Shown one piece after another: positions 5,966-45,465 of a DNA stretch of 64,000 nt (position 1 is the first letter of the stretch; each line of letters starts with the position of its first letter). Origin of the DNA: a virus; IMG/VR virus record IMGVR_UViG_3300009509_000006, positions 34,059 through 98,058 of that record; one strand, 5' to 3'. The translations under genes and the position numbers were made by a program. Below the pieces are notes generated by a model. That model saw only the letters and a list, made by a program, of their open reading frames with translations. It was not told the origin of the DNA and made no database searches.

Positions 5966-7405
5966 CTACCCAAGTGCAATGGGCTCGACCTCGACGTAGT
6001 CGTACTGCGTGGAGTCGAAATCTTGACTCCCGACCTTGCCCTTCGACCTGATGCTCGATGGCAGGAACTGCTCACCAAGATTCGACGTGTTACTGATACA
6101 GGACACCGTCATCTCTGCGCCGCTCGCCCCGATCGTGTAGGAGACCTTCAAAGCTCCGTACAGAGTAGCGTCGTGCCGATTCGAGATACCGATCACCTTG
6201 GCGATGTCGCCCGGAAAGAACTGCGGGTCCATCAGAGTCGTGATCTCAAGCTCGATGCCCATCCCGGATGTCATCGCGTCGTATTCGGACTTGGCCGCAT
6301 CCAAGACCCTGGACCGCTCCGGGTTGCCCGGATAGAAGTCGCCTCCGTCACCCGAGTCGCTCTCCGCCGGGTAGGAATCCGTGGCCTCGGCCTGGGTGGC
6401 GGCGTCCGCCGTCCGGCCCACCAACGCGATCGCATCGTTCACGAAGTGCTGGAGCAGCTTCCGGGACGAGGAGGTGATGTCCCTGAGCAGAACACCCCTG
6501 CAAGCTCCAGGCGCGTACACGGCGTTCGTAGGGCTGTCTACGCTGAGGATCGGGAAGACCCCCTCGACCGGCCCGACAACACCACCAGGGAAGTCGAACA
6601 GGCGGAAGGCCCGCTTGATCTCACCGGAGAAGAGCCGATTGACCGGGAAGATATGAATCGTGTTCTCCACCAGGGTCATGGTGCACCGAGCCTCGCGCAC
6701 CAGGTTCCACACGAAAGCCCAGTCCGAGAGATAGCCCTGGGCGATGCACTCCTTGTTGATCTTCAGGAGGCTGAGCGGACTGTCGGGCTGAATTCCGGCT
6801 CCGGCCTCCGCAGTCACCAAGTCCGCGTTGACCTCGAGGTTGCGCTTGATCGCCCTGTCACCCGAGGGTTGGATCGTCTCCCACGCGCCCCTTTCAATCT
6901 CGACCTCTGCGGCCAGCTGCGAGGATGTCGGGCCCTTGATCACGGTCTCGATGATCTCGAGCCGAGTCTTGTTGTTGAACGTGCGGCCAGAGTGCTGCCG
7001 CAGCGCCGAGTAGCCGCCGGTGCCCTGTGCCGTCAGCGTGATCCCGACGTCGATTCCTGTCGAGACTTCTGGGGGTAGCAGGATCCCCGTGTAGACCGGC
7101 GAGAGCACGATGCCCTCGGGCGCTCCGGCCGAGTAGCCGAACTGAACTTCCAGACTCGAGACGCCCCACTCAATGAGCGGCGAATTGATGAAGGCCTGGC
7201 CATCCCGAAACGTCGGGGAGAGCGTCGCGGTGATTCGTGGCACCTCGCCGAGCTCGAGGTCGACAGTCAAGTTCTCGAGGAAGGGCAGCGCTGGCGGCAC
7301 ATCGGGGCCGAGGTCCGGCACGTTGGTCCACAGGGGCACGCGACCGAGCGGGCTGTCGATCACGGCGATTGCAATCGGAGAGTAGTAGTCGAAGACGCCA
7401 GGCAT
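5966..7405 (-). CDS. Baseplate hub (gp27/gpD/VgrG N-terminal-like)
   Basis: LEVQFGY, QGYLSDWAFVWNLVRE and DPQFFPGD motifs; position upstream of the spike gene. Confidence 0.8.
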   Translation of the reverse strand: MPGVFDYYSPIAIAVIDSPLGRVPLWTNVPDLGPDVPPALPFLENLTVDLELGEVPRITATLSPTFRDGQAFINSPLIEWGVSSLEVQFGYSAGAPEGIVLSPVYTGILLPPEVSTGIDVGITLTAQGTGGYSALRQHSGRTFNNKTRLEIIETVIKGPTSSQLAAEVEIERGAWETIQPSGDRAIKRNLEVNADLVTAEAGAGIQPDSPLSLLKINKECIAQGYLSDWAFVWNLVREARCTMTLVENTIHIFPVNRLFSGEIKRAFRLFDFPGGVVGPVEGVFPILSVDSPTNAVYAPGACRGVLLRDITSSSRKLLQHFVNDAIALVGRTADAATQAEATDSYPAESDSGDGGDFYPGNPERSRVLDAAKSEYDAMTSGMGIELEITTLMDPQFFPGDIAKVIGISNRHDATLYGALKVSYTIGASGAEMTVSCISNTSNLGEQFLPSSIRSKGKVGSQDFDSTQYDYVEVEPIALG

Positions 7406-7448
7406 GTCCGGTACACGTACCGTTTAGTGGGTGAAATGATTGTCAAGG

Positions 7449-7763
7449 TCAGAACTTCGCGAACTTCTTCCTCATCTCCTGGAGCACGTATCGGGGCGAC
7501 GGGATCCGGATCGTCTCGCCCTGATTCAGGTCGGTAGGCTCGATCTCCATGCCATTGGCAGCAGCGATCACATGCTTGTAGAGCTCGGCACCGTAGTACC
7601 GGAAAGCAAGGGCGTCGAGCGTGTCGGCGGCAAGCACAACGTACTGGATGTCGTCTGGCTGATCGGGGATGTCGGGGTACTCGATCATACCCCAGAACTC
7701 GAAGCCGTCGATCTTGAAGATCTCTCCGAAGCGCAATCGGCTATCCACTCGTACCCGTGGCAT
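7449..7763 (-). CDS. LysM-like baseplate protein (gp53/P2 gpX-like)
   Basis: DTLDALAFRYYG...IAAAN...GETIRIP motif. Confidence 0.88.
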   Translation of the reverse strand: MPRVRVDSRLRFGEIFKIDGFEFWGMIEYPDIPDQPDDIQYVVLAADTLDALAFRYYGAELYKHVIAAANGMEIEPTDLNQGETIRIPSPRYVLQEMRKKFAKF

Positions 7764-7764
7764 G

Positions 7765-10700
7765 TCACCCTCTTGTTCGGGTCATGTTGCCGCTCCGAGC
7801 AACCCCGGTCTCGAAAGCCCCGCTCTCTCGTGCCGTCGAAGATGCCGTCTTGAGCCGCGCGCCTTGCTTTCGGGGTGTCGCTTTCGCTCCAGAGGCCTCG
7901 ACAGCCGCGATCAGCCGCTCGAATTTGACCTTGTAGTCCTCGTACCATTTCGGGAAATGGATGGCCTGGTACATGGCCTCATCAATGCTCAAGCCATCGA
8001 GTGGAGGAACCTCGGCCGGGGTAGGCGTTACTGCCGCTTCGACACCTGCCTGGAGTTCCTGTGCGGAACTCGCGATGCGCTCCAGGGCAGCCAGGGCCAT
8101 GCGCGCCGAATCCAGGTCTGCCATGATGGCAGTGACCGCCGTGTCCGTCATGTCGAGGATGTTGCCCCACGCGGTTCCCCAGCTGACCTGGATGTCTGTC
8201 GCGAGGCCCTCGAACTTGCTCGCCATGCTGTTCGTGAAAGCGCTCGTGATACCGATCATGCCGGTCTGCCACAAGGACCAGATCTGCATGGCGGTGTTGG
8301 TATCGTCTGAGATGATCCGCGACAGAGTCGGATCCGGCTCTGACACAACGACCTGCAGGGGAACCTTGAGGGGCTCGCCCGGCGAATCCGGCGACCCGCC
8401 CATCCCGGACAGCCCGGTCGTGATGTTCGCTCTCAGCATAGCGAGGGATGCAGACATCCATGTGGTGAGTGTGGGCCAAGATTCCTGGAATCCAAGCAAG
8501 AGTTCCCCGACAAAGCCGCCGCCCACCTTGGACAGCTTGCTCAATGGACTGCTCGAGTCTTCGGGTGGCGAGCTCCAGGGCAAGTACTCCATCAAACCGT
8601 CCAACTTCTCGGTCAAGAAGTTCTTGACGTCCTCCCATTTCTTCTCGAGACCTTCCAGGAATTGGCCAATGAACCCGACCGCGGCGTTGTACATGGCTGC
8701 GCCGGCGCTGATCACGGGTGTGATGAACGTCCCCGTCACCCAGTCCCCGATTGTCGACAACGCATCGCTGATCGGTTGCACGATGTAGGCTTGGACAGAG
8801 CTCGAGACCCATTCTGGCAACGTGGCCAGCCAGTTGATGGCGTTGAAGAACGCGGTCTGGAACGACGAGGCGACATCCGTGATCAGTTCCTTCAGAGCAG
8901 TGAAGTGTGTGGAGGCGCCCTCGACCAGGGTCGTGATGATCTCGGAGAAGAAGGACAGGAAGCTGTCAAGCACCTCACCCATGAAAGCGAAGGCGCTCGC
9001 GAACCAGTCAGGGATGATCGACTCACCGAACAGCCAATTCCAGATTCCGGTCAGCCAATCGCTGAACGCCTGCCACCCCTGCTTCCATGTGTCGAGAAGC
9101 GAGTTCATGAAGTCGAAGACAAGGCCAACGCTTTCCTTCAAGCCATCCCAAGAGTCCGAAATCTTCGTGACGACATTGCGCATAACAGCGCCGACGGCGG
9201 GGAAACGCCGCTCGAACCATTCGGTGATCCCCTTGAGCACACCAATGACGAGGTCTCCGACAAGCTTGATTCCTGCCCAAGCCAATTCTGGAATCATTGC
9301 GAACAGCGAGGGGATATACTTGATCACCTTCAGGGGTGCATCGACGAACAAGAACTTCCAAGCACTGAGCGCGAAGTCGATGAGGATGGGCATGGCCGTT
9401 GGAAGAAACGACCGCAACTCATCCCCGAGGGTGTCCGCAATCCCACTCACGATGGGGCCGAGATTCCCAAAGAAGCCCAGTATGATCTCCAGAGCCTGGT
9501 TCGCCCAGATGGGGATCTGGCCGAGCAGCGACTGGACGAACGGAAGCACGGCATAGAGAGCCGAGAAAGCGACACCGATCGCCATCTCAGTGAAAGTCCC
9601 GTACAGGGCCGCCAAATCCAAGCCACCGAGGAACGCGAAGGCGCTGTTCACGAACGTGATGAGGGCCTGCCCGACCGTCCCGGCGGCACTGAGCAGCGCC
9701 ACGACCACCTTCGAGATCGCACCCTCAACAGCATCACTCAAGAGAAATCCGAGCACGCTCTCGACGGTACCGAAGGCAGTGTCGAAGATGCTCTGCCACG
9801 GGATCTTCGATACCAGTGCCTTCAACGCGCCGGATACCGTCGTGTAGTAGCTCACCACGAGCGGGAGGGCCCTCTGCACGCCATCCCCTATGAACGTCAT
9901 GAGCTGCTGGCCGGCGGACCGGAGCGCCATCCCGATCGATTCCCAGTCGATCCCTTGGAGCATCAGGCCGAAGAGCTTGAGGCCACCGTAGACGACGCCG
10001 AAGAGCGCCTTGGCGATGCCGACCCACGGCAGGTTCGCTACGAAGTTCACGAGCGTCACGAAGGCCTTCCCAAGGAAGTCCCCAATGCGCCCCATCACAG
10101 AGCCCCAGTCGAGCTTGGCGAGGCTGCGGTAGAGCCCGCCGAACACCATTCGGAAGGTCTCGACGAACAGCTCGATAGCTTTGCCGACTTTGGTCTTTGC
10201 TCCGCGCGTAGGATCGAACACCGCGAGGATCTCGTCCCACACGATAGCCATGCGCCCTGGAGCACCCTTGGCCTCGCCGACGAAGTCCGCAATCAGGTTG
10301 TCCCAGAAGTTCTCCCAACCGCCGAACACCCACTCGATAAGATAGGCCTGTCGGTACAGGTAATCCCCTAGCTCAGACAGAGCGTCGACAGCCATGTCAA
10401 AAGCCGCAACGAGCACCTCACCAACTACTCTCGCCACCTTCTTGACGTCCTCGACCATTATCTCGAGGGCCTCGGACGTCGTTTTGCCCTGTGCCTTCAG
10501 GTCCGCGAAGCGAATCAGGCCGATACCCATGACTGCCGTGAGGGCGCCCCAGGGGCTGATGAGGTCGTCGAGCTTGATGCCCATCGCACCGAGAGCAGTC
10601 AGCGCCGGCGCGATCTCCCCGACCACCCGGCCGAACAGGATCGACATGGGTTGGAGCGTCTTCGGGATGAAGGCCTGCACTCCGATCTGGTGTACCTCGG

Positions 10701-24054: not shown

Positions 24055-24579
24055 CTACTTCCCAGGAAACTCCTTCTTGAGCTTCGATTCCACAGCCTTG
24101 TTCCACGACTTGAGCTTCGGGCCCTCCCACCAGCGCGACGCCGCGGCGCCGACAGCCGCAGCGCCTCCCCAGAAGGGGTCGTACCGCCCGTACAGCTGCT
24201 TCGTGTCCGAGATCTTTGCGCTGGCGTGCCCAACGAGGTGTCGAGCGTTGACGAGCTCCGGTGGAAGGATCATGAGGAGGCCTTCCTTCCTGAGCATCTC
24301 AACAGTGAAGTCCGTACCCTTGAGCATTCCTCGGGCGTCGTCCATCGCGCTTTTGCCAATGTCGAATCCCTGCTCGCGCGTCAGGTACTTGCGCCCGTAG
24401 GCAACGCCCTTCTTCCACTGGGCCTCGGCAAACTTCGATCCGGACAAGGATTTGCCGAATTTGTCCTTGTAGCCCATGAAGGGCTTCTTCCACTCTTCGT
24501 GTGGGACAGGAGGATCGGGAAATTGCGCCTCAAGCTTGCCCTCGAGCAGGTCCCGGCCCTCTTGGATGAAACGTCGCAC
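24055..24579 (-). CDS. Putative internal head protein 3 (shared leader MRRFIQEGRDLLE)
   Basis: Leader shared with the two upstream genes; Lys-rich. Confidence 0.65.
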   Translation of the reverse strand: MRRFIQEGRDLLEGKLEAQFPDPPVPHEEWKKPFMGYKDKFGKSLSGSKFAEAQWKKGVAYGRKYLTREQGFDIGKSAMDDARGMLKGTDFTVEMLRKEGLLMILPPELVNARHLVGHASAKISDTKQLYGRYDPFWGGAAAVGAAASRWWEGPKLKSWNKAVESKLKKEFPGK

Positions 24580-24580
24580 A

Positions 24581-24844
24581 TCAGCCCCCTACTTCCTTGA
24601 GCTTCGCGGCCACTTCGGGGTCCTTGCCCCAGCGCTTCCTGACAGCCGCCTTCACGGCAGGGTAGTCACTGGAGTCACCACGCTTCGCCTGGATGTAGGC
24701 GAGAGCGCGGATCGCGTGCTCCTGGTCATGGATCGGCCACCCCTTGCGCTCGGGGAAGACGAATGACGACTTTTTCATGCGCTCGCGCTTCCCTGGCGTG
24801 ATCTCGTCGAGCAGCGCACGTCCTTCTTCGATCAGGTCTCGCAT
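24581..24844 (-). CDS. Putative internal head protein 2 (leader MRDLIEEGRALLDE; small basic domain, possibly DUF6582-like)
   Basis: TGATG overlap sets the start at 24844; motif RERMKKSSFVFPERKGWPIHDQEHAIRAL. Confidence 0.7.
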   Translation of the reverse strand: MRDLIEEGRALLDEITPGKRERMKKSSFVFPERKGWPIHDQEHAIRALAYIQAKRGDSSDYPAVKAAVRKRWGKDPEVAAKLKEVGG

Positions 24845-25791
24845 CACACAACTCCCATGTCCTGGAGCACAGTGACCACACCCTTCTTGATGCGGTTCTG
24901 GCTCTTTGGCGTGAGGTGTTTCTTGATCTCGCGCCATGTGTTGGATTGCCCGAGCAGAAACGTCACCGCCTTGCTCTGCGGCCACGCTACGAGTTTCGCT
25001 CTGTGCGCGCCAACCAGGTCCCGAACCTGCGCGGAAATCTCCTGCATGTAGGCCTTCACCTCTTCGGGCGAGTTGTAGTAGCGAGCCTGGCGCTCCTTCG
25101 CCTTGGCCTTCGCCTGAGCTCGCTGCTCTTTCGGACTGTCCGGCGGATGCAATCCCACCTTCGTGAGGGTCATCTTCAGCCGCTCAGTTGAGTCGCCGAT
25201 CCCGAGCTCTTTTCGCTTCCGGGCGATCAGTCGGTGCGAGACCTCGCCATAGCCAGCTGCCTTCAAAATCTGCGAGATCTGCCTATCCGAGAAGGGATGA
25301 ACAGGGTTCTCCTGCTGGAGCAGCGCTACGATGTGACGCTCCAGGCTCTTCTTTCGCAGCACGTCCTTGGCGTGGGTGATCTCGTGCATGAGGGCGTACT
25401 TCATGGCGCCCTGAATGCTCGACATCTCGGTCCCACGCAAGAGCGGCACGAGCTCGCCGGCACCGAGATTTCCGTTCAGCATCATGTTGATGATTCGCTC
25501 TTTCGGCGCGTAGACGGCACCCAGAAAGAGCCCGCGCACGCCGGGCCTCTTGACGCTGATCACCGAGACCGGAATCTCGCGCTTCTTGCCCTTGACATCG
25601 GACACAGTGATCTTCTCGGTGGCCCACAGCTTGTCGCCGATCGGCTTGGTCGGTTGCACCCTCGCCATGCTCTGGAGCGCGGGCACGAACTGGCCCATGA
25701 GCCGCTTGACGAGCATCGTAACGACTTGGTCAGGCAGCTTGATCGGGCGGGCTTCGAGGAGCTTGTGCCCTTCCGTGATCAGGTCTCGCAT
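24844..25791 (-). CDS. Putative internal head protein 1: zincin (HEITH) with inserted sigma-54 C-terminal DNA-binding domain
   Basis: Leader MRDLITEGHKLLE; HEITH followed later by YYNSPEEVKAY; insert IVALLQQENPVHPFSDRQISQILKAAGYGEVSHRLIARKRKELGIGDSTER. Confidence 0.75.
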   Translation of the reverse strand: MRDLITEGHKLLEARPIKLPDQVVTMLVKRLMGQFVPALQSMARVQPTKPIGDKLWATEKITVSDVKGKKREIPVSVISVKRPGVRGLFLGAVYAPKERIINMMLNGNLGAGELVPLLRGTEMSSIQGAMKYALMHEITHAKDVLRKKSLERHIVALLQQENPVHPFSDRQISQILKAAGYGEVSHRLIARKRKELGIGDSTERLKMTLTKVGLHPPDSPKEQRAQAKAKAKERQARYYNSPEEVKAYMQEISAQVRDLVGAHRAKLVAWPQSKAVTFLLGQSNTWREIKKHLTPKSQNRIKKGVVTVLQDMGVV

Positions 25792-25800
25792 GGCTACCTC

Positions 25801-25839
25801 AAACAGAAAGGCCGCCCACCCAGATCGGGGGAGCGGCCC
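25801..25839 (-). terminator. Rho-independent terminator after the major capsid gene
   Basis: Minus strand GGCCGCTC...GGGCGGCC stem followed by TTTCTGTTT. Confidence 0.75.
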
Positions 25840-25880: not shown

Positions 25881-27377
25881 TCAGATGTTGAGCACGCGGA
25901 CCTGCCCGTAGTATTCGGCCCGAAGCAGCTTCTTCGCGTAGCGGGTACGCAGACCCTTACGGAAGCTCATGTCATTCGGATCCAAAAAGGTGGGCGTCAC
26001 CTGCAACGGGACGTAGGGGGCCCAGACGAACCCGGCGTCCAAGTACGAGCCGCCCTTGAGGCCCAGCATCGCGAAGTCGGACGCGAAGAACGGGTCGACG
26101 TAGACGACCCACTTCCGCATCAGGGTGCCGGCCTTGTAGACGCCGAACTGGCCGTGCTGCGTCAGGGGGCGCGGCATGTCGGCCGGTCCGAGCGGGCTCT
26201 CGCCGCCGCTCACCCAGATCGGGCGGTAGTCGCCGTGAGTGGTCAGCTGCTCCATCAGAGCGCTGATCTCGGGCGAGGTCACAATCCAGTTCGCGGGCGC
26301 ACGCAGGGTCCGCTTGTGGATCGAGTTCGACACCTGGGACAGCACGGTGACGAGCGACCGGAGGTGATCGATCTCGGCGATGCCGCTGGGCGGGATCCGA
26401 TCGAAGGTTCCACCGCTCCCGGTCGAGGCCAGGAACAGGTCCTGGATGATCTCCCGGTCGATCTCGAGCGCCATCTCGCTCGCCGCTGCAGCGACCAGCT
26501 CCGTCTCGGCTTCGAGCCCCTGCAGGTTGCGCAGGTCCTCAGCCGCTTCCGAGCTCCAGAGAGCCTTGAGACGACGCGGGACCGCCTCGATGACGGCTTT
26601 CTTCACGTCGAGCTGCACTTCGGGCAGCTTGGTGTTGAGCTCGCCGTCGTAGCTGTAGTACATCTTGATCTGGTGGCCAGCCACGGGGTCGACGGCGAAA
26701 CGCACACCCGCCAGGGCACCATTCGAGTAGTTCAGGGTGCCGGCGGTGAGATCGGTGCTGGTGTCCGCGGCACCACTCGCCAGGAACTTGCCCTCCTGAA
26801 TCACGGACCCGGCCGCATCGAGGTCGCGGATGATCACGTCATAACCGCGATCGGTACTCGGCTTGTGCACCGGAGTGAGAGCCAGATTCACACTGATCGG
26901 CACACCACTGGGACCGTAGTCCGAGCCGGTACCGGTGGCGAGGATTTCACCATTCACGAACTCCGAGCTGTAGTAGCGGTCGAAGTCGCGCGGGAACACG
27001 TCGCCGCGAGTCGTTTCCCCCTTGGTCGTACCGTAGACATAGTCCAGGTAGAACACGGCGCCCTGCGGCGCGGTCATGGGCTGCACCGAGACGATCTCGT
27101 TCACGATCAAGTTCGGGAACACACGGCTGAGCACCGGGAACACGAATTTCGTGAAGTAGCCCACATTGATGGCCCTCGTCTCTTCGTTCATGCTACGAAG
27201 GTGACGGGCCTGGTTCTCGTAGAGCATCGCCATGCAGCCCCGAATGTAGCGCTCGTGGCGACAGCGATCCGGCATCCCTTCCAGAAGGGGTGCCCACTTC
27301 TCCACGTATGCGCCGACGAGACGGCGGTCGGCGATGGTGCCACTGCTATCTTCGATCACAACTCGACGAGCTTCCAC
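25881..27377 (-). CDS. Major capsid protein (T4 gp23-like)
   Basis: KWAPLLEG, IVSVQPMTAPQGAVFYLDY, RRLKALWSSEAAEDL, LEIDREII and APYVPL...RKGLRTRYA motifs. Confidence 0.97.
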   Translation of the reverse strand: MEARRVVIEDSSGTIADRRLVGAYVEKWAPLLEGMPDRCRHERYIRGCMAMLYENQARHLRSMNEETRAINVGYFTKFVFPVLSRVFPNLIVNEIVSVQPMTAPQGAVFYLDYVYGTTKGETTRGDVFPRDFDRYYSSEFVNGEILATGTGSDYGPSGVPISVNLALTPVHKPSTDRGYDVIIRDLDAAGSVIQEGKFLASGAADTSTDLTAGTLNYSNGALAGVRFAVDPVAGHQIKMYYSYDGELNTKLPEVQLDVKKAVIEAVPRRLKALWSSEAAEDLRNLQGLEAETELVAAAASEMALEIDREIIQDLFLASTGSGGTFDRIPPSGIAEIDHLRSLVTVLSQVSNSIHKRTLRAPANWIVTSPEISALMEQLTTHGDYRPIWVSGGESPLGPADMPRPLTQHGQFGVYKAGTLMRKWVVYVDPFFASDFAMLGLKGGSYLDAGFVWAPYVPLQVTPTFLDPNDMSFRKGLRTRYAKKLLRAEYYGQVRVLNI

Positions 27378-30823: not shown

Positions 30824-32659
30824 CTACCTCGCGTGATGCGGCCTCCGGTTTAGCTCTCGAGTGTGCATTCGAATCTCCCGGACCTGAGCAGCAATGCGAC
30901 TCTGCTCCCTGACCAGGCGCCCCCAAGGCGTGTTCGAGTACATATCCCCACGAAAGCCCATGCCAGATGGCACCCGCTCAGAGATACCATTGCCCCCCGC
31001 ACCGATCAAGTACGGTGCCCTGGGGGTGCCAGTGAACAGCCGAGGACGCCGGCCGCCGAGAAGCAGGTTTCCGTATGGGGCCCGGGACTCGAATCCGCCG
31101 CCACCTTCCTGCCCACCTTGTGCAGCCATCATAGCCTTCTGCATGAGGGCTTGCGCCTGGCCTTCGATAGCGCCCTGACGCACAGCCTCCTCGTCGCGCT
31201 GATCCATGATAGTGCGAATCTCGTCGTCCGTCAGGCCCTCACCGTGCTTCAGCGCGTATTGGAGCGATACGTGCTCGCGCATACGGCTCATCCAATCGGC
31301 CCGAGCGTTCTTCACCTCGAGCTGCGCCAGCTCGAAGATCGAGCTCGGCACCGTGAACTTCACCTCGAACTCGACGTTGTCCGGTGGGATCCCAAGAGCC
31401 GCCAGGTGCACACGGAAGACCTTCTCGAGTCCCTCGCGCAGGCACTGCTGCAGTCTCATGACCGTGCGCGCGAAACGGACGTCCTCGCTCGACAGGATCG
31501 CCCGGTTCACGCCCTCTTCCTGTGAGAAGTAGGCCTTCGGCACCTGCATCGCCGCGAACAGCTTGCGAAGGAAATATTCGATGTCTTCCATGTGCTGCCA
31601 GTTCGGACCGCCCAGCAGCTCGATTCGTGTAGCCTCGGTACCATTGATCACAGGCACGAAGAAGTCTTCGTCTTGCGCCAGTGCGTCGAAGCGCAGGTCG
31701 CGCTGATTCGTGATCGGGTTGACGAACTTCTTCTTTTTGTACTGCTGCCGGATCTTGTGCAGCATCTTGAGGGCTTCGTGCGGCGGCAGGTTGCCCGTGT
31801 CGACGTAGAAAGCGAAGCGCTCGGGAGCGCGCTGCAGCCTGTAGACCAACGCAGCGTCTTCCAGAAGGATCAGCCGCTTCCAGATCCAGCGAGCCGGCTC
31901 GAGAATGCTCCAGCCGTAGACAGAGCGGCGGTGCTTCGCGCGCATTCGAAAGTGCGCGACCTGCCAGTTCTCGAACGGGATCACTTCGTTGTAGCCGACG
32001 CTTCTCGGCGGCGTCGCCGAGAGCTCGTTCGGCTGCCCAGGGCCTTTGTACTGGAATTGGAAGCGCTTCGAGAGCAGGTCCTGGAACTCTTTCGGCGAGA
32101 ATCCGATGCGCCGCTTGAAGTCCTGGACGAAGCCGTAGAGCTCGCCACGGGGTCCCTCGATGCGCCGCACAGAGTGCGCAGGCAAGTGATTCAGCCCGAC
32201 GACGCCCTCCTCGGCAACCAGGATCTCTTCGTAGTCGTTGCCTGTCTTCGACGTCGACCGGGCGATCTCCCACAGGTCCCTATCTTCCAAGCGCAGGGTC
32301 CGGTGGAACAGATCGTTTCCGAGTTGGGCAATATCGCGGTCCGGGCTCTCCACCCAGACACGGCGCCCACCTGGTGTGTCTGGCTGCGTCGCGTCGTCGG
32401 CGTAGATGTTGAGCGCGGCGCTCACCTCCGGGTAGTCGTCCATCGTTTCGTAGTCGATGAACCGCGACATGAGGTCTTGCTCCAGCTTGAGGTAGTCCGC
32501 CACGACATCGTAGCCGTAGCTCTGGAGCATATCGTAGGCCGAGCCTGGAAGCGTAGCGGCTGTCGCTCCTTGAGCCAGGCGCAGCTGCACCTGCTCTTTG
32601 TCCCTGCCGAACCAGGAGCGGATACCACCGAACACGCGGTTCATGAAGCCAGGCATCAA
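30824..32659 (-). CDS. Portal protein (T4 gp20-like)
   Basis: YETMDDYPEVSAALNIYADD, LLEDAALVYRLQRAPERFAFYVDTGNLP, EDFFVP and DIEYFLRKLFAAMQVPK motifs. Confidence 0.97.
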   Translation of the reverse strand: MMPGFMNRVFGGIRSWFGRDKEQVQLRLAQGATAATLPGSAYDMLQSYGYDVVADYLKLEQDLMSRFIDYETMDDYPEVSAALNIYADDATQPDTPGGRRVWVESPDRDIAQLGNDLFHRTLRLEDRDLWEIARSTSKTGNDYEEILVAEEGVVGLNHLPAHSVRRIEGPRGELYGFVQDFKRRIGFSPKEFQDLLSKRFQFQYKGPGQPNELSATPPRSVGYNEVIPFENWQVAHFRMRAKHRRSVYGWSILEPARWIWKRLILLEDAALVYRLQRAPERFAFYVDTGNLPPHEALKMLHKIRQQYKKKKFVNPITNQRDLRFDALAQDEDFFVPVINGTEATRIELLGGPNWQHMEDIEYFLRKLFAAMQVPKAYFSQEEGVNRAILSSEDVRFARTVMRLQQCLREGLEKVFRVHLAALGIPPDNVEFEVKFTVPSSIFELAQLEVKNARADWMSRMREHVSLQYALKHGEGLTDDEIRTIMDQRDEEAVRQGAIEGQAQALMQKAMMAAQGGQEGGGGFESRAPYGNLLLGGRRPRLFTGTPRAPYLIGAGGNGISERVPSGMGFRGDMYSNTPWGRLVREQSRIAAQVREIRMHTRELNRRPHHAR

Positions 32660-37589: not shown

Positions 37590-38056
37590 GATCCGGGTGG
37601 CAGCGAAGTGGCACCTGCGGCCTTTCGGAGAAGAGCCCGGTTGTGCTCGCGATCCCAGTAACCGTCCGGGTCGAAGTCCTGCCAGAGCATCTCGATCATC
37701 TGCTCGCGGTCCTGGACAGTATCAATCATCTCGTCGCTCGCCCACGTCATGCGCCATCGGTCAAGCGACATCGGGATGAAGTGCAGCTCCGATCCTTCGG
37801 GGTAGTTCGGGTCGAAAGTCTCTACGACGATCGTACCGTCCTTGCGCTCCTCCCGAATATGTCCGAACACGCCCCGGTACGATTTCCCGGTGTAGTCAGG
37901 CGCCACGGGGATGAGGAACAGAAACTCGGATACGTTGTGACTGGGCTCGGGCCCGTGCGCTTCGAATGCTCCGAGCGCCATGTCCTCCGTGTCCAAGTCG
38001 ACGACGCCCTCTTTGTAGAGGACAGTCCGGTAGATTTCTCGATACTGGAGAGGCAT
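37571..38056 (-). CDS. Acidic 161-aa protein coupled to the giant protein (candidate immunity/partner)
   Basis: Start MPLQYREIY overlaps the giant gene stop as TGATG at 38056. Confidence 0.65.
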   Translation of the reverse strand: MPLQYREIYRTVLYKEGVVDLDTEDMALGAFEAHGPEPSHNVSEFLFLIPVAPDYTGKSYRGVFGHIREERKDGTIVVETFDPNYPEGSELHFIPMSLDRWRMTWASDEMIDTVQDREQMIEMLWQDFDPDGYWDREHNRALLRKAAGATSLPPGSLPYIS

Positions 38057-41000
38057 CACGTCACCAACGGTTTGATGAAGTCCTCGTAGACCTCTTGGGC
38101 TTTGATGTTCGGCTTGTAGACAACGAATTCCTCGATGGGCACTCCGTTGTATTCGGTCAGGCCGCGCTGTGCGCACAGCTGCAAAAGGTTGGTCCTCGCG
38201 GCAGGGGAGCCACAGACGATTCGGGCCAGGCGCTGAATACTGACGCCCTTTCGGAAGCTCCACTCCATCTTATTCTTGTGGGTGACATTCTGGCTCTCAG
38301 CCAGTTTGTCCACGGAATCCCGCGTGTCGAAGGAACTGCCTTCGTCACAATGCCCGAACGAGTCACAGGGGTATCCGTAGAGGTCGAGCCGGTCGGCCAC
38401 ATCGGGCGTGAACACCTGCGCATACGCCGAAGGCTGCCACGTGCCACTGAACAATTCCTTGCCCGGAGCGGTCCCAGCCTGGGCAAAAGGCGTGAGCAGA
38501 ATACCATCTGCCGAACCGGAGTCGATGTCCGATTGCGGACTGATCCCGTAAGTCTCGGTCATTCCCAAGCCCAGTCGCTCATTGATACCGCCGGTTCCCT
38601 GGAGCATTACACCAAGCGGGCCGAGCGGATTGCCGGACACCGAGGTGAAAAATCGCAGGTTGCCGCCGGCGAGCTTCTTCCACCGGCCCTCTTGCACGTG
38701 CGTGACGTGCTCGTCCGTCTTGACGACCTTGATGTCGTCGATGTCTTTTTGAGAGTAGCCGAGCTCGGCGAGCCGTGCCTTGACCTTGTTGTAGTCGTTC
38801 AGGTCCGCATCGGACATCCGATACTTGTACTGCCCTGCCTTCGGGTGTCCATGCGGATACTTCGTTGGATTCGTCACAGAGTCTGGGTCGATGCACCAGA
38901 GCAGCCGGCGAGCCTTCATCATGCGCTCTTCCTTCTGCGTCGGCGGTCGGAACACCGTGTCCGACAAGCCGGGCTTGACCTTCTCGAGGCATCGGCGGAG
39001 CGCTTGGCCAGGCGTCTCTCCGGGCTTCGGGCGAATCTTTGCGTTCACCATGCCCATCAGGGACCAGCGACTCTTCTTCGTGGACAGGTAGACTTGCGAG
39101 CCCTGATCGCTCCACTTCGGGCCCTCTGTCGCAACCTTGGAAGAACGTCCGCATTCCTTGGCTTGGACGAAGCCGGCCTTCTCCTTGTACGTCCCAGTGT
39201 TCTCGTCATAGTCGGCTACAGGCCACTGGAACGACCCGTTCTGGTTGCTCGACAAGCCCTGCCACACCTCTTTCCTCAACTTGAAGTTGAAGTGGTAGTA
39301 GGTGTTTCCGTTCGTGTCGACAATCTTGCGGCACCTGGAAGCCATGCCTTCCACATCACCGCCGTCGCTGTAGAAGCCGTACCCCTTCGGCGTGTAATCG
39401 AGACCCTCGAGGTTCTCGAGGTCGTCGATATTGGCCTCCTGCTCGAGGTCATCCCAGGAAGCAAGAGTTGGGAGCTTGATTCCCTTTCCGGGCTCGGGCT
39501 TCGGGTAGGAACTCCCAGTTGTGACGGACGGTGGAGGAGCCGGCGGAGTGACATTGTAGTCCGGGTTCGGCATCTTGAGCTTGATCTTGCTCGTATCGAT
39601 ATGTCCGACCTCTGTCGCTCCAGGCGTCATGTCCGCGATCTTGACCTTGACCATGTTGTACGCGGACCCAGCGACGGGGCCCTCGTAGGGCACACCCGAG
39701 TCGTCCAGGATCTTCTGGAGATCGCCGAGCGACATACTGCCCGAAGGAACTTTGAGCATGGCCTTTCCAGGAATGTCTCCGGGCTGCGCGAACTGCGCCT
39801 TGATCTCCGTGAACTTGCCACCAGTCTGCGCAAACAGAGCCGAGACGTTCGAGTCGATCGTCATCGGGACTGCAGAGGGCGCCGGGGTCGGCGGGGGTAG
39901 GGGCGGCTCGGCCGTTTCGGGCGCAGCTGTCGATTCCCAGCCACCGGCGAACGTGAACTTGCCCTTCTTTGCAAACGGGTTGCCGAAGTGCCGCTTGTTG
40001 TAGGCCTGCGTGAGAAAGGCCTCCATGTCGGCCTTGAGATTCGCCTTGCGCGTGACACACGCTGACAAGAAAGCGTCGCGCCTCTTCTTGTTCGCCTTGC
40101 CCTGCATCTCAGGAACCGTGTTCGCGTAAGCCATGCACTGCGACTGGTACTCCTTCATGGGGATCGCATCGATGGCGTTGATCCGCGCCTCGAGCTTCTT
40201 CGGGTCGAAGTTGATGTTCCCGTTCGTCCAGGCATCCCAGAAGCTGTTGTAGTAGGGAGGGGCGCCGTTCGCGGCGTTCGGACCCGAGGAGGGGTCGAAC
40301 ATCTTCCAATGGCCGCCCTTCTTCTTCCATCCAAGGTAGTCAGTCAGGGAACTCTTCGTCCCCTTGTAGTCCATGAAGCGCCAGCCTTGCTCCTTGTCGA
40401 TGCCCACGATCTTGCCATTCGAGAGCATCATCAAGTTGCCCGCGTAGCTGTCATGCTGGCTCATCATCCAGTCCATGACATGCTCCTCGGCCACATTGAG
40501 CTGCTGGTCCTCTGTGAGAGAGCTGGGAGACACGCCTCCGAGCGTCTTCGAACCGGACAGCCATGGCTGAAGCGTTCCAGGTTCTCCGTTGGGGAGCGTG
40601 ACGTGCCGAACTGGAATGGCGTCGGGGTCTACCTTTCGAGCCATCACGGAGAATGACTGCTGGGCAGCAGCGGCGAAGGGCTTGTTGGCCATTGCCCCGA
40701 ACTTCTCCTTCGCCGACTTGTACAGGTAGATCTGTCCGTCCGGGCCCTTGTAGAAAGCCTTCGCCCCTGCTCCCGCGAGCGCCCCGGCCGTCTTCCCTTC
40801 GATCTTGTGGCTCGAGGGCAGCTTGGCCAAGTCCTCGAGTTTCGGGACGGTAGCGATCTCTGGGATCGGCTTCTTCTTCTTCGGTGCCGGCGGCGCCTCG
40901 AACTTGAACGGCCCTTCCACACCGGCGGCGTTCTGCACTGTCGTGAAGAACTTCTCGAAGTCAGCCCGGATGTTCTGTTTGCGCTGTAGCGCTTTCTGCA

Positions 41001-44000
41001 GGGCGCCCTCGTACTGCGCTCCGGGGGCGGCCAAGCTCATGTAGGGCTTGATCAGCGCCTCGTAGTCCTCATCCGAAAGAGCCTCGATCTTCTTGATTAC
41101 GGACGCTGCCGCATCGAAATCGAGATCAATGCTGCCGTCCCTGTGCGCCTGGTACAGTGCGGCGTAGACCGGGGGAGTAGCATTCTTCTGTTGCGCTCCA
41201 GACAGTTCGGCATCGATGCTCGTCGGCTCACCGCCCTGCACCATGAACTTGAAGGCCTGCTCCTTGTCGATCCCGACGATGCCGCCAGCCTTCGTGCGCA
41301 GGAAGTTGTCGCCCTTCGTATCATGCGAGCCCACCAGCCAGTCGAGCACGTGCTCTCGCAACAGATCGTTCCGCTGCTTCGAGGTCAGCGCCTTGATCTT
41401 CGACATCGGGACCTGGGTTCCGCCCTTGCCATAGCCAGGAGCGATCGTCCCGTTGTTCTCGATCATCGGTTGGATCGAGCCATAGCCCTGAGACGTCTGC
41501 ATCGCCTTGACGGGCACGTATCCGCCCGCGGGCATAATTGCCGCAGCCACTGCAGATACGACTTGCGCGGCCCGAGCCGCCTGCTTGGCTCCGCCACTCG
41601 CTCCAGGTTTGAACAGGTATATTCCGCCCTCGAGGTCCTCGAAGTAGCTCTTCGGCTTGATTCCCCCAAGCTCGGCCTGCGCCTCGCCAACGAACACGAG
41701 CTGGTTTCCAGACGTCGGCATATCGCTCGCGAGCGGCGGCACCGACCACTTCTTCTTTTTCTTGTTCTTCTCCTTCTCGTACTTTTCCTCCCAGTCCGCA
41801 CCAAGCGCCGCCGTCAGCAGCATCTTCTGGACCGGGGTCAGGCCGTCCGGGCCCATCACGCCCGCTTCCTTGAGTGTATCGACGACCTTCTTGTGAACCT
41901 GCTCCTGAGATAAAAGGCTCGGGTCTAGGGAAGGCGGGGCGGAAACAGCAGCCATGATAGCCGCTTCGTCGATGTCCGGGTCGGGCTTGTGGTACGGAGC
42001 GTACAGGCCCACCGCCTTGTGGGTCTGCTTCTTGAGCGTGTTGAACGTCGACGACTTGGCCAGCGAGTGCGCGGCCTTCAGGAGCTCGTAGGCCTCGTCC
42101 GCGAGCATCCCGAGGTCTTTCTCAACGGCCGACCCCGGGTATTCTTTCTTGATCCACTTGGCCTTCTGGAGCTTGTACGTCCCTGGAGGCCAGGCGTTCA
42201 CCATCTTTGCCAGGGCTTTCATGGCACCGTAGTGCACGGGCCAGATCTTCGGTCCGTACTGACTGCCCGGGAACGACCCTCCCTGCCCGAAGTATGTAAG
42301 TCCCCACGTTTCGCCGGAAGCCTTGAAGCTCTTGACCGCATTGAAAAACTTCTTGAATGCGGCAGAGCCCATTTTATTGACGTCGATCTCAGTCCATGGG
42401 GCCTCTGGCACTGTTGTCTCTGGAGCTTCCGTATCGAAGAAGCCGAGGAACTCGTCGATCTTGCCGTCCGCGAGGTCGCCCATGGCACCGACGAACTCGT
42501 CCTCGGACATCCCGAAGTGCTCGCCCACATCGGTCATATCGGCAGTGATGCCGAGCTCGGTGACAGCGTGAGCGAACTGGAGCGCCTTGTACTTCGCCTT
42601 CCAATCGTTTCCGGCGAGCTTGACGACGGCCTTCCCGAACGGCGTCTCCATGTCCACCGCGCTGATACCACCGATCGAATCGAGAGCGTCGCCGAAGTGC
42701 CCATACTTTGACGGGAACATGCCCAGCACTTCGCTCTTCTTCTTCGTCAGGTTGCCGAGCAGCGCCGCAACATCGGGCTCGGGCTCGAGCTCGGTAGCGA
42801 GCTCTTCGGGCTCTGGCTCAGGTGGCGGCGGAGGCGGAGGCGGGGTCTCGGCGTCCACGGGGGCAGCAGTCCCGATGCCATGGTTGAAATACGTGTAGAA
42901 CTGCTTCAGCGCCTCTTCCTTCGCTTCCCCTGGCGCTGCCGTCTTGACCTTGTTGGCGTGGAAGAATGCCAGCACGGTTCCTTGGTAGCTATTGAATCCG
43001 AACGCCTCCTTCAACTTGTTCAGAGTCGGCTCGCTATCCTCTGCGCTACCCTCCGGGTCAATATTGTGCAGGGCATAGGCGGCGAACTGGAGCGCCTTGG
43101 CCTTCTTCTTCCAGTCCGTCCCATGCTTTTCCTTGAACGTGCTCTGTGCTCCGGGGGACAACGTGTCGAGCCCGGCCTCGTAGACCGAATTCGCGAGCAC
43201 GCCGAGCGCCTTCGGGTGTGGCGGGAATCCGTTCAGGGCCTCGGCAGTCTGATTCGACGACATGGTGGGGAAGGCCGGCGCGGGCGGCACCGGGTCCTCA
43301 ACGGGCTCGGACACGAAGTCGAAGTCTTCCCACTCCTCCTCGGGCTCCGGCTCCGGGGGCGCAAGACCAGTCGCCTGGTGGTAGGCATCGTACATATCGT
43401 CGAGGGCATCCGCCTTCATGCCCTCGGGCTCGCCACCAAGGGTGCCCGCGATCGCCGCGAACTTCACGAAGTCGACCTCGTCGACACCCCCCATGCCCGC
43501 AGCATTCTGTGCCTTCACCCAGTTCTCACCAGAATCGTCGGGGAGCCCCGGCCCGCCCATGTTGTGGATGACCACGGCAGCCGCCGCCATAGCGTCCGCT
43601 TTCGTCATCCAGTCCGGGCCAATCGAGTTCGCGAGTGCGGTAGCAACAGGCGCCGGGAGATTCTCCGGGCCGCCGTTCGTCACGACAGCCACGCCGAGAC
43701 TCTTGTCCGGCTCGGGGTATCCCGCGAGAGCTGCCTTCGCCTGGTTTGCCGAGATCCCGTAGGGGGCCACGGGCTGATCGAACGGGTCGGGTTCGGGCTC
43801 CGGCTCGGGCTCCGGCTCGGGCTCCGGGGGCGGCGGCGCGGGAGTGGGCTCAGGCTCGGGCTCCGGCTCGGGCGGGGCGGGCTCTGGTTCTGGCTCGGGC
43901 TCTGGGGGAGACGGGGGTGGCGGGGGCTCCGGCGCCACGAGGGCAGCCGGAGTCGCCTTGGCGTACTGGTCCGCCCAGTCGTCGCCATAGTGCGCTTTCA

Positions 44001-44427
44001 TAGTGCCCGCGATCTTGTCGTCGCCCTGGAGCTCACCGAGATTCATGCCCTCGAGCTCCATGATCTTCTTCATGATCTCGATCGTGGGCATCTTGCCGGC
44101 CTTCTTCATCGCAGCCAGCTGCTTGCCGATCGTGCCTGGGTGGTCCTTCTGGATCTCGACGTCTGCCGGGATGTCCGTGACGTCCTTGTGTCCCGACTTG
44201 AGCGTGCCGATCACCTTCGCCGCCGCTGCGCTTCCCTCCGGCGGATCCATCAGCATCGGGAAGACCGTCTGAATCTTCCAGTGGGGAAACATGTTCGGCT
44301 GCGGCTTCTTCGGATCCTTCTTCTGCGGCGTCCACGTGTACACGAGGAGCGGCGTCATCTTGTAGAACGAGGCTTCGCACAGCGCGCTCAGCGGGACGAG
44401 AGAACCGTGCTTCTTCGGGCCAGGCAT
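38056..44427 (-). CDS. Giant (~2123 aa) multidomain protein: Pro/Glu linkers, two HipA/PI3K-like kinase domains, possible ART-like C-terminus
   Basis: GGAGGT ribosome-binding site before ATG 44427. Kinase 1: YLFK...EHVLDWLVGSHDTKGDNF...GIDKEQ. Kinase 2: YLYK...EHVMDWMMSQHDSYAGNL...GIDKEQ. Confidence 0.8.
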   Translation of the reverse strand: MPGPKKHGSLVPLSALCEASFYKMTPLLVYTWTPQKKDPKKPQPNMFPHWKIQTVFPMLMDPPEGSAAAAKVIGTLKSGHKDVTDIPADVEIQKDHPGTIGKQLAAMKKAGKMPTIEIMKKIMELEGMNLGELQGDDKIAGTMKAHYGDDWADQYAKATPAALVAPEPPPPPSPPEPEPEPEPAPPEPEPEPEPTPAPPPPEPEPEPEPEPEPDPFDQPVAPYGISANQAKAALAGYPEPDKSLGVAVVTNGGPENLPAPVATALANSIGPDWMTKADAMAAAAVVIHNMGGPGLPDDSGENWVKAQNAAGMGGVDEVDFVKFAAIAGTLGGEPEGMKADALDDMYDAYHQATGLAPPEPEPEEEWEDFDFVSEPVEDPVPPAPAFPTMSSNQTAEALNGFPPHPKALGVLANSVYEAGLDTLSPGAQSTFKEKHGTDWKKKAKALQFAAYALHNIDPEGSAEDSEPTLNKLKEAFGFNSYQGTVLAFFHANKVKTAAPGEAKEEALKQFYTYFNHGIGTAAPVDAETPPPPPPPPEPEPEELATELEPEPDVAALLGNLTKKKSEVLGMFPSKYGHFGDALDSIGGISAVDMETPFGKAVVKLAGNDWKAKYKALQFAHAVTELGITADMTDVGEHFGMSEDEFVGAMGDLADGKIDEFLGFFDTEAPETTVPEAPWTEIDVNKMGSAAFKKFFNAVKSFKASGETWGLTYFGQGGSFPGSQYGPKIWPVHYGAMKALAKMVNAWPPGTYKLQKAKWIKKEYPGSAVEKDLGMLADEAYELLKAAHSLAKSSTFNTLKKQTHKAVGLYAPYHKPDPDIDEAAIMAAVSAPPSLDPSLLSQEQVHKKVVDTLKEAGVMGPDGLTPVQKMLLTAALGADWEEKYEKEKNKKKKKWSVPPLASDMPTSGNQLVFVGEAQAELGGIKPKSYFEDLEGGIYLFKPGASGGAKQAARAAQVVSAVAAAIMPAGGYVPVKAMQTSQGYGSIQPMIENNGTIAPGYGKGGTQVPMSKIKALTSKQRNDLLREHVLDWLVGSHDTKGDNFLRTKAGGIVGIDKEQAFKFMVQGGEPTSIDAELSGAQQKNATPPVYAALYQAHRDGSIDLDFDAAASVIKKIEALSDEDYEALIKPYMSLAAPGAQYEGALQKALQRKQNIRADFEKFFTTVQNAAGVEGPFKFEAPPAPKKKKPIPEIATVPKLEDLAKLPSSHKIEGKTAGALAGAGAKAFYKGPDGQIYLYKSAKEKFGAMANKPFAAAAQQSFSVMARKVDPDAIPVRHVTLPNGEPGTLQPWLSGSKTLGGVSPSSLTEDQQLNVAEEHVMDWMMSQHDSYAGNLMMLSNGKIVGIDKEQGWRFMDYKGTKSSLTDYLGWKKKGGHWKMFDPSSGPNAANGAPPYYNSFWDAWTNGNINFDPKKLEARINAIDAIPMKEYQSQCMAYANTVPEMQGKANKKRRDAFLSACVTRKANLKADMEAFLTQAYNKRHFGNPFAKKGKFTFAGGWESTAAPETAEPPLPPPTPAPSAVPMTIDSNVSALFAQTGGKFTEIKAQFAQPGDIPGKAMLKVPSGSMSLGDLQKILDDSGVPYEGPVAGSAYNMVKVKIADMTPGATEVGHIDTSKIKLKMPNPDYNVTPPAPPPSVTTGSSYPKPEPGKGIKLPTLASWDDLEQEANIDDLENLEGLDYTPKGYGFYSDGGDVEGMASRCRKIVDTNGNTYYHFNFKLRKEVWQGLSSNQNGSFQWPVADYDENTGTYKEKAGFVQAKECGRSSKVATEGPKWSDQGSQVYLSTKKSRWSLMGMVNAKIRPKPGETPGQALRRCLEKVKPGLSDTVFRPPTQKEERMMKARRLLWCIDPDSVTNPTKYPHGHPKAGQYKYRMSDADLNDYNKVKARLAELGYSQKDIDDIKVVKTDEHVTHVQEGRWKKLAGGNLRFFTSVSGNPLGPLGVMLQGTGGINERLGLGMTETYGISPQSDIDSGSADGILLTPFAQAGTAPGKELFSGTWQPSAYAQVFTPDVADRLDLYGYPCDSFGHCDEGSSFDTRDSVDKLAESQNVTHKNKMEWSFRKGVSIQRLARIVCGSPAARTNLLQLCAQRGLTEYNGVPIEEFVVYKPNIKAQEVYEDFIKPLVT

Positions 44428-44520
44428 GGACACCTCCGACGCTTGCAATCCTCGTAGAGAATGGCGTTTCCACGGGATCCGTGTCAACCTCTACCCCGGT
44501 CCTTAGAGAAGGAGACGAAG

Positions 44521-45465
44521 ATGGACAGAATCCTTGTTGTGGGCGGCGCTGGCTACATCGGCGGCGCCGTCACCGATCTGCTGCTCGCAAACCATCTCGA
44601 GTTTCGGGTGCTCGACACCCTCCTCTACGAGGAGGTCTATCGCAAACCGGTAGCGTTCTACAATGTCGACGTCCGGGATCACGCGGCGCTCCTGCAGCAT
44701 CTGCCCTGGGCAGACATCGTGATCTGGCTCGCCGCCTTGGTAGGTGACGGCGCCTGTGCCATTCATCCGGGTATCACGAAGGCAATCAACCAGGATTCCG
44801 TGCAGTTCCTTGCGGACAACTTCGATGGCCGGATCGTATTCCCGTCTACCGCCAGCGTGTACGGTGTCCAGGACGACTTCGTAGACGAGAGCTCGCCGAC
44901 GAACCCCCTGTCGGTCTACGCCGAGACCAAGCTCGAGTGCGAGCGAATACTCGCCCGGAAAGACGCACTGATTCTGCGACTCGGGACGCTGTTCGGACTC
45001 GGGGACCTGTTCTCACGTATTCGCCTGGACCTCGTCGTCAACACAATGAGTGTGAAAGCGCAACTGCATGGGGCGCTCCAGGTGTTCGGGGGCCGGCAAT
45101 ACAGACCTGTCCTCCATGTCCGAGACGCCGCCCTCGCCATGTTTGCCTGTATGAACACCGGGTACTCTGGTGTGTTCGATCTGGTGCACGAGAACGTTCG
45201 GATCGGAGAGCTCGGACGGCGGATCGCGAAAGCAATCCCGGGAACGCGAGTCGAAGTCATCCCATGGGACAAAGCCGATACGCGCTCCTACCGGGTTCGT
45301 GGCGAGAAGGCCAAGGCGTTGCCTTTCAATTCCAGTCTGGGCATCGAGGTTGGTATCCAGGAGCTATCGGGCTTGGTGAGCTATGGGAGACTGCCGGACC
45401 CAGACAACCCGCGCTTCACGAACCAGCGCTACCTCTCGGCGTTCAACGACCGTTTGCAGCGGTGA
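44521..45465 (+). CDS. NAD-dependent sugar-nucleotide epimerase/dehydratase (extended SDR)
   Basis: GGAGYIG, STASVYG and YAETK motifs; AAGGAG ribosome-binding site. The only convincing plus-strand gene. Confidence 0.93.
   Translation: MDRILVVGGAGYIGGAVTDLLLANHLEFRVLDTLLYEEVYRKPVAFYNVDVRDHAALLQHLPWADIVIWLAALVGDGACAIHPGITKAINQDSVQFLADNFDGRIVFPSTASVYGVQDDFVDESSPTNPLSVYAETKLECERILARKDALILRLGTLFGLGDLFSRIRLDLVVNTMSVKAQLHGALQVFGGRQYRPVLHVRDAALAMFACMNTGYSGVFDLVHENVRIGELGRRIAKAIPGTRVEVIPWDKADTRSYRVRGEKAKALPFNSSLGIEVGIQELSGLVSYGRLPDPDNPRFTNQRYLSAFNDRLQR

Follow-up and report, generated by a model that had tools for sequence, protein, structure and literature searches.

Phage T4 marks its internal proteins IPI-III and Alt with a capsid-targeting sequence, which the protease gp21 cuts after an L/I-x-E site; the internal proteins are basic, associate with DNA and are ejected along with it. 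Tethering a protease to DNA is a strategy known from the DNA-protein-crosslink proteases (SPRTN/Wss1) and from IrrE, and to our knowledge a DNA-tethered protease was not known before as cargo of a virion. The present analysis concerns P0001, a predicted protein of 315 amino acids (aa) whose zincin-like core is interrupted by a domain of the RpoN type, otherwise characteristic of sigma-54. Its gene lies in a stretch of 64,000 nucleotides, referred to as the window, which comprises positions 34,059 to 98,058 of the IMG/VR virus record IMGVR_UViG_3300009509_000006; the record spans 98 kb, is estimated to be ~57% complete and represents an uncultured phage.

In sigma-54, the RpoN domain contacts neither core RNA polymerase (RNAP) nor the remainder of sigma-54 and constitutes an independent recognition module for the -24 promoter element (PMC5095919). 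When taken by itself, the domain still binds the -24 element, and supplying it in trans represses sigma-54 promoters (PMC5626770). Residues R455 and R456 read bases, and single changes of R456 redirect sigma-54 to other promoters (PMC12096077); the Tyr of the RpoN box has also been reported to be crucial for binding (PMC5626770). Because the domain reads the -24 element by itself and makes no contact with core RNAP, a detached copy is able to bind DNA but unable to act as a sigma factor. Zincin-like peptidases of phages and plasmids have in turn been described as the metallopeptidases (MPTases) of polyvalent proteins (Iyer, Burroughs, Anand, de Souza, Aravind 2017, PMC5512222), an account that contains 0 occurrences of 'RpoN' or 'sigma-54' and mentions no RpoN-type insert.

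An RpoN-type domain within a zincin-like protein

P0001 is laid out as follows.

24844..25791, minus strand: complete gene of P0001, 315 aa plus stop
25753..25791, minus strand: N-terminal leader, residues 1-13 (MRDLITEGHKLLE), ending in L-x-E; the same motif occurs on other genes
25363..25752, minus strand: zincin-like core, N-terminal part, residues 14-143 (AlphaFold2 model, family alignment)
25372..25386, minus strand: HEITH motif, residues 136-140 (H136, E137, H140), invariant in 86 relatives
25177..25362, minus strand: inserted RpoN-type three-helix domain, residues 144-205 (Pfam, PDB match, AlphaFold2 model)
25081..25176, minus strand: remainder of the insert, residues 206-237: the end of helix 201-211, then a linker rich in Pro (HPPDSP), then helix 220-237
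24847..25080, minus strand: zincin-like core, C-terminal part, residues 238-315 (AlphaFold2 model, family alignment)

Residues 140-204 score 34.2 bits (E 2.6e-8) with the Pfam family Sigma54_DBD (PF04552), whose gathering score is 22.8, and the match covers positions 94-158 of the 160 in the profile, which correspond to the C-terminal RpoN domain. A six-frame search of the record reproduces this match at 34.8 bits and finds no second copy. Among PDB sequences, the top phmmer match is the RpoN domain of A. aeolicus (2ahq, 2o8k; E 1.5e-4), to which the insert is 38% identical over 55 columns. Structure comparison of model residues 145-204 likewise ranks sigma-54 RpoN domains first, with a root-mean-square deviation of 2.1-2.7 A over 56-57 residues. 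The insert is a true RpoN-type domain, with a likeness well beyond chance.

The AlphaFold2 (AF2) model was computed from an alignment of 86 sequences (pLDDT 91.6, pTM 0.81) and replaced a three-sequence model with a pLDDT of 62.9. In this model, the RpoN-type domain consists of helices 147-159, 169-178 and 186-195, and the core comprises helix 21-45, strands 54-64, 70-80, 89-95 and 100-106, the HExxH helix (126-142) and the Glu helix (242-269). The last part of the insert, helix 220-237, is basic and Lys/Ala-rich and is modelled as continuous with the conserved Y238; the complete insert (144-237) has an isoelectric point (pI) of 10.6. Beyond it, the motif Y238-x-N240-x-P-x-E244-V-x-A247 opens the Glu helix, and a helical bundle at 272-311 carries W286.

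These results bear on an original prediction, made from the letters of the window and their translations, that a sigma-54 RpoN-box domain is inserted into a zincin metallopeptidase at 25175-25390. The strings it quoted are present in the translation, namely HEITH (136-140), the run from IVALLQQ to DSTER (154-204) and YYNSPEEVKAY (238-248, at 25080-25048), and its coordinates are correct (residues ~135-206) once the minus strand is added. It named as refutation a lack of both profile and structural matches to the sigma-54 helix-turn-helix (HTH), together with a lack of DNA binding; on the first count, both comparisons point to the HTH: the Pfam score lies above the cut-off, a PDB sequence matches and the structures superpose. 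The zincin was said to resume at YYNSPEEVKAY directly after the quoted string; it does resume there, but 33 more inserted residues (205-237) intervene after ...STER.

The recognition helix SHRLIARKRK aligns to the RpoN box ARRTVAKYRE with 3/10 residues identical, so that the divergence of the box recorded in the prediction is real and the canonical sequence is absent. The equivalents of R456 (R187) and R462 (R193) are retained, that of R455 is H186 (F in the orthologue P0002), and that of Y461 is K. The helix is otherwise near-invariant across three orthologues (S185, R187, L188 and A190 to G197) and is therefore under selection. Region I and the core-binding domain of sigma-54 are not found in P0001, in which Pfam matches the DBD part only and the remainder belongs to another family. 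The -24/-12 consensus is not in excess in the window (2 sites against 3.6 expected). Judging from these residues, the RpoN-type domain would bind DNA, but its preferred site is not necessarily the -24 element.

The zincin-like family and the rarity of the insertion

When 1.84 billion representatives were searched exhaustively with a profile, at least 434 relatives of P0001 emerged, which occur in metagenomic and phage records only. Most relatives are 230-290 aa long, and they match P0001 in two pieces that flank the insert; Pfam holds no model for this family of ~245 aa. In an alignment of 86 relatives, which share 22-35% identity with the query, H136, E137, H140, N240, E244 and A247 are invariant, and R15, G68, L134, T139, Y238 and W286 are conserved at 90% or more. 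D143, three residues past HExxH, reaches the same level (>=90%) in an alignment of 51 sequences, and no invariant His outside HExxH was seen among the 86. The invariance of E244 agrees with the placement of a third ligand within YYNSPEEVKAY in the original prediction, and this residue is the putative third zinc ligand.

Comparison with homologues shows that the insert-free form is the rule and that the RpoN-type domain lies between the HExxH helix and the helix of the invariant Glu, as the word 'inserted' had implied. The spacing from HExxH to the Y-x-N of the Glu helix is 10-49 aa in 138/144 sequences, and values of 92-105 aa occur only in P0001-P0003 and in the next-closest lineage, P0004/P0153/P0154, where P0004 gives a weak Sigma54_DBD match. 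Since the long spacing is confined to two small lineages, the RpoN insert is derived and rare, and a single origin is probable. The related phage L001 has the insert-bearing orthologue P0003 adjoining an insert-free paralogue, P0005, and L002 shows the same arrangement.

Close relatives are few in the other collections searched. Word-indexed searches with the whole protein returned only two orthologues, those with the N-terminal part found none among shorter proteins, and those with the insert alone found only the orthologue. With P0001 as query, tblastn found nothing in 50,697 phage records. Two insert-free relatives match only one phage record, an uncultured 485-kb genome (LR745208.1). In Xanthomonas phage XacN1, the sole profile match reaches 12.6 bits and falls on the HExxH region, and these searches linked no cultured phage with a proteome to the family.

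Sub-threshold Pfam matches of the family are almost all to zincin families, with Peptidase_M91 in 13/86 relatives, followed by Zincin_1, SprT-like, M48, M90, M76 and M35. The core domain is also present inside proteins of 700-2000 aa, in one case alongside a SprT-like domain. Matches in BFVD comprise unnamed phage proteins and one protein named 'large polyvalent protein associated domain', and an insert-free member searched in the ESM Atlas leads to unnamed viral clusters, the nearest named one being LPD23 at 0.86, which serves as a lead only. The whole model gives nothing at E <= 0.001 in a Foldseek search of the PDB, and the family profile matches only a designed protein among PDB sequences (E 0.26). 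No profile match to Peptidase_M78/ImmA was obtained for P0001, M78 is missing from the list of the 25 families that the 86 relatives match most often, and the structural likeness to ImmA/IrrE is weak. From its motifs, its modelled topology and these weak but recurrent matches, the assignment of the core as zincin-like is well supported, and P0001 is putatively an active protease.

RpoN domains outside sigma-54

Sigma54_DBD domains are also found in metagenomic proteins that are not sigma factors. Nine such proteins (P0017, P0019, P0023, P0028, P0049, P0069, P0076, P0077 and P0145) carry 2-9 copies in tandem, an example being a protein with 9 copies in 603 aa (E 1e-85). Several of them have hydrophobic N-termini resembling signal peptides or those of lipoproteins. 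Some repeats retain the canonical VARRTVAKYR and most are divergent; their identity to the phage insert is 30-44%. The presence of the domain in these tandem proteins marks it as a mobile module beyond sigma-54. It would be a mobile DNA-reading module, inserted in enzymes in some cases and arrayed in tandem in apparently secreted proteins in others. The literature searched holds no paper on RpoN domains outside sigma-54, on an RpoN-zincin fusion or on tandem-RpoN proteins, in keeping with the original prediction, which knew of no description of the fusion. A domain that usually serves as a signature of sigma-54 is thus shown to be a portable DNA-binding module both by its splicing into a loop beside the predicted active site of a zincin-like protein and by its tandem arrays.

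The leader and the head module

The gene for P0001 is surrounded by the following features.

25881..27377, minus strand: gp23-type major capsid protein (E 6e-64), directly upstream of P0001
27409..28974, minus strand: gp21-type prohead serine protease (Peptidase_S77) with a long C-terminal extension (Pfam 59 bits against a cut-off of 27; phrog_207, E 1.8e-45)
30824-32659: portal protein (Portal_T4, gp20 homologue; E 1e-60)
24581-24844, minus strand: leader-bearing gene, 87 aa, basic, with a sub-threshold DUF6582 match
24055-24579, minus strand: leader-bearing gene, 174 aa, basic, with the same N-terminal motif
G000:C1 ~1706 down to 1392, minus strand: fourth leader-bearing gene, 105 aa, Gly/Lys-rich, basic, with the leader MRNMIQEGRLLLE-G; outside the window and 32 kb upstream of it
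L001, 4211-4498, 4646-4978, 7633-7992 and 7989-8930, plus strand, and 8927-9676, minus strand: leader-bearing genes after the capsid gene of the related phage
25801..25839, minus strand: hairpin rich in G+C, then UUUCUGUUU, in the gap from the capsid stop to P0001

P0001 sits within a T4-type head module. Its first 13 residues, MRDLITEGHKLLE, are followed by ARPI (A14 onward) and conform to a consensus, [IV]-[ED]-x-G-[RH]-x-L-[LF]-x(0,1)-E, that starts four otherwise unrelated genes in the record and five in L001. The latter encode three small proteins without a Pfam match, the insert-bearing P0003 and the convergent insert-free P0005. Because the fourth gene of the record, at G000:C1 ~1706, also carries it, the leader is not confined to the cluster behind the capsid gene. 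All leader-bearing proteins of the record with a computed pI are basic (pI 9.7-10.3), and the N-terminal region of the capsid protein has a site of the L-x-E type as well (P-L-L-E-G). The leader is a candidate capsid-targeting sequence or propeptide, which a gp21-like protease would cleave before A14-R-P-I. The combination of a shared leader, a gp21-type protease and basic proteins matches the pattern of the T4 internal proteins, and for this reason, by analogy, P0001 is likely to be packaged in the virion and injected in the manner of T4. The suggestion of a packaged protein in the original prediction, made plausible by the shared leader and the gp21-like protease, is in line with this.

The A/S-R-P-I motif behind the putative cleavage site is kept throughout the family (R15 >=90%), including members that lack a leader. 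Given this conservation, the N-terminus left after cleavage would count among the conserved elements of the fold or the active site.

The gene has a GAGG at 25800-25797, 6 nucleotides upstream of its start ATG (25791), and its stop shares 1 nucleotide with the start ATG of the following leader-bearing gene. The hairpin upstream has a dG of -23.7 kcal/mol and a z of only -1.8; it may, tentatively, act as an attenuating terminator that lowers expression of cargo relative to capsid. The record has a G+C content of 60-63%, and nearly every gene is on the minus strand. Elsewhere, the window encodes sheath, tube, family A DNA polymerase and RecA-like genes. The closest relative of the capsid protein in the phage collection belongs to an uncultured 595-kb phage (35% identity).

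Several further observations were made in these genomes. In L001, the gene directly behind that of the capsid protein (3319-4161, plus strand) encodes a homing endonuclease of the LAGLIDADG type (LAGLIDADG_3, E 2e-6); the window has none at this position. L001 also encodes, at 7010-7486 on the plus strand, a 158-aa open reading frame (ORF) without a Pfam match, in which a likeness to the middle (insertion) part of the capsid protein was noted by eye. The likeness lies in the patterns ...Y-x-D/N-G-E-I-L-x-x-G-x-G... and ...N-Y-x-x-G-x-L-x-G-V-R-F..., and the ORF may encode a capsid surface domain copied as a free-standing unit. In the window, a 2143-aa ORF at 38056-44487 on the minus strand has no significant Pfam match; its product may be a giant protein of the polyvalent or injected kind, and the stand-alone zincin could conceivably cleave it. 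Two genes of the NAD-dependent epimerase/dehydratase or RmlD-like kind, at 44461-45465 (plus strand) and 45443-46333 (minus strand), suggest sugar-nucleotide metabolism, possibly in DNA or surface modification.

Proposed function and alternative explanations

The explanation that we favour, and to which we give about an even chance, is that P0001 is a basic zincin that is packaged in the virion, trimmed of its leader and brought into the cell with the DNA, on which the RpoN-type domain and the basic helix hold it while it cleaves DNA-associated proteins. The starting enzyme would have been a stand-alone zincin-like metallopeptidase of the kind seen in the polyvalent injected proteins of phages, and an ancestor of the lineage would have gained the RpoN-type HTH together with the basic helix, at the variable loop that connects the HExxH helix to the Glu helix. 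The protein would be made late, together with the head proteins. Its 13-residue leader would then bring it into the prohead, where the gp21-like protease would remove the leader after L-L-E. The basic mature protein would ride the packaged DNA into the cell, and the RpoN-type domain would retain the catalytic domain on DNA, resulting in cleavage of DNA-associated proteins of the host or of rivals; candidate targets include defence nucleases, repressors, and nucleoid or transcription proteins. Since insert-free paralogues bear the same leader, the insert would add localisation to a cargo enzyme that already worked. A DNA-tethered protease was one of the two functions put forward in the original prediction, and it is the part of that proposal that the evidence favours.

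Several points weigh against this explanation. A conserved motif that serves assembly or regulation, and has nothing to do with injection, could equally be what the leader is. The equivalents of R455 and Y461 are altered, and DNA binding could accordingly be weak or changed. The core, which the original prediction had called a zincin outright, is supported as zincin-like by its motifs, its topology and weak recurrent matches, but not by any above-threshold profile or structure match to a characterised peptidase. Polyvalent-protein zincins have, moreover, also been proposed to act in self-processing only (PMC5512222).

The alternative that fares best among those considered is one that we still regard as unlikely. 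Here, the RpoN-type domain and the basic helix would bind the DNA of the phage itself, in packaging, ejection, head organisation or protection, and the zincin would process phage proteins only, either itself or a giant polyvalent protein. Basic, DNA-associated and ejected internal proteins are textbook knowledge for T4, the leader-bearing proteins with a computed pI share this basic character, and a protein of 2143 aa is encoded at 38056-44487. Polyvalent zincins have been proposed to process phage proteins in the head or after injection (PMC5512222). A sequence-specific HTH with a near-invariant recognition helix nevertheless exceeds what bulk DNA binding needs, and the insert-free paralogues and most relatives manage without a DNA-binding domain.

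The other function suggested in the original prediction was competition at sigma-54 promoters. In this explanation, the injected domain would be a natural 'RpoN roadblock' that occupies -24 elements of the host, blocks or degrades the sigma-54 holoenzyme or its activators and shuts off sigma-54-dependent stress or defence genes. An engineered 60-aa RpoN domain of A. aeolicus, supplied in trans, binds the -24 element with a dissociation constant (Kd) of ~109 nM and represses several hundred genes of P. aeruginosa (PMC5626770); the phage insert is 38% identical to that domain and retains R187 and R193. The residues that distinguish the insert speak the other way. The base-reading R455 has become H186, or F in P0002, and a change of the neighbouring R456 alone is enough to re-target sigma-54 (PMC12096077). 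The reportedly crucial Tyr of the RpoN box is Lys, and only 3/10 residues of the box are identical. The existence of non-sigma RpoN repeats with divergent helices further implies that the fold is not tied to -24 sites. With these substitutions and without an excess of -24/-12 sites in the window, competition at sigma-54 promoters is unsupported, and we consider such a roadblock improbable. An extended form, in which the domain homes to -24-like elements and the zincin destroys what is bound at them, be it the sigma-54 closed complex, its AAA+ activators or further proteins, appears just as doubtful. If a natural roadblock did operate, sigma-54-dependent stress and defence programmes would be silenced within seconds of infection.

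It is likewise improbable that P0001 remains unpackaged, as a late cytoplasmic regulator or an ImmA/IrrE-like anti-repressor protease that cleaves a DNA-bound repressor, its N-terminus being a translational, regulatory or assembly motif, given that it has no Peptidase_M78/ImmA profile match, that its gene lies inside the head module directly past the capsid gene, and that its leader ends in the gp21-typical L-x-E and is common to unrelated small basic proteins.

If the DNA-tethered, virion-packaged zincin is the correct explanation, P0001 offers a concrete case of a protease that is possibly delivered by a phage already tethered to DNA. The shared leader behind the capsid gene also provides a handle for listing injected proteins across a group of uncultured T4-like phages.

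Comparison with known systems

With the RpoN domain of sigma-54 (the final ~60 residues of PF04552; 2AHQ, 2O8K, 5UI5, 5NWT, 8F1J), the insert shares the three-helix HTH bundle and its sequence framework, including P-[FLY]-S-D, the G that precedes the recognition helix and the L-G-I that follows it. Unlike its counterpart in sigma-54, the phage domain is not C-terminal and is embedded in an enzyme-like loop; lacking Region I and the core-binding domain, it is unable to recruit RNAP. The engineered RpoN* roadblock (PMC5626770) is similar in that its RpoN domain is detached from sigma-54 and acts on DNA alone. RpoN* has a canonical RpoN box and no enzyme, whereas the phage domain has a divergent recognition helix.

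The core resembles the polyvalent MPTases in its order of N-terminal helix, sheet, HExxH helix and Glu helix, in the Asp three residues past HExxH, in its restriction to phages and in its occurrence within very large multidomain proteins as well; variable inserts between the two helices are known in that group. Unlike those MPTases, the domain here forms a stand-alone protein of 245-315 aa with a capsid-type leader of its own, and it matches no Pfam/LPD model. The His at the end of strand 2 that marks the polyvalent MPTase clade has no counterpart among invariant residues in the 86 sequences of the P0001 family. IrrE/PprI (COG2856) and SPRTN/Wss1 are also zincins coupled to DNA-binding modules, but there the module is appended rather than inserted and the families are different; matches of P0001 to them are weak and none is a profile match.

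As in T4, where IPI, IPII, IPIII and Alt are the precedent, a short leader ending in L/I-x-E is shared by unrelated basic proteins, and homologues of gp20, gp21 and gp23 are encoded in the genome. In contrast to T4, neither the leader nor the proteins show sequence similarity to their T4 counterparts, and the genes follow immediately downstream of the one for the capsid protein. The zincin family and the logic of the leader fit kinds already described, the polyvalent MPTases and T4 respectively, and it is the RpoN insertion itself that is new to the literature searched.

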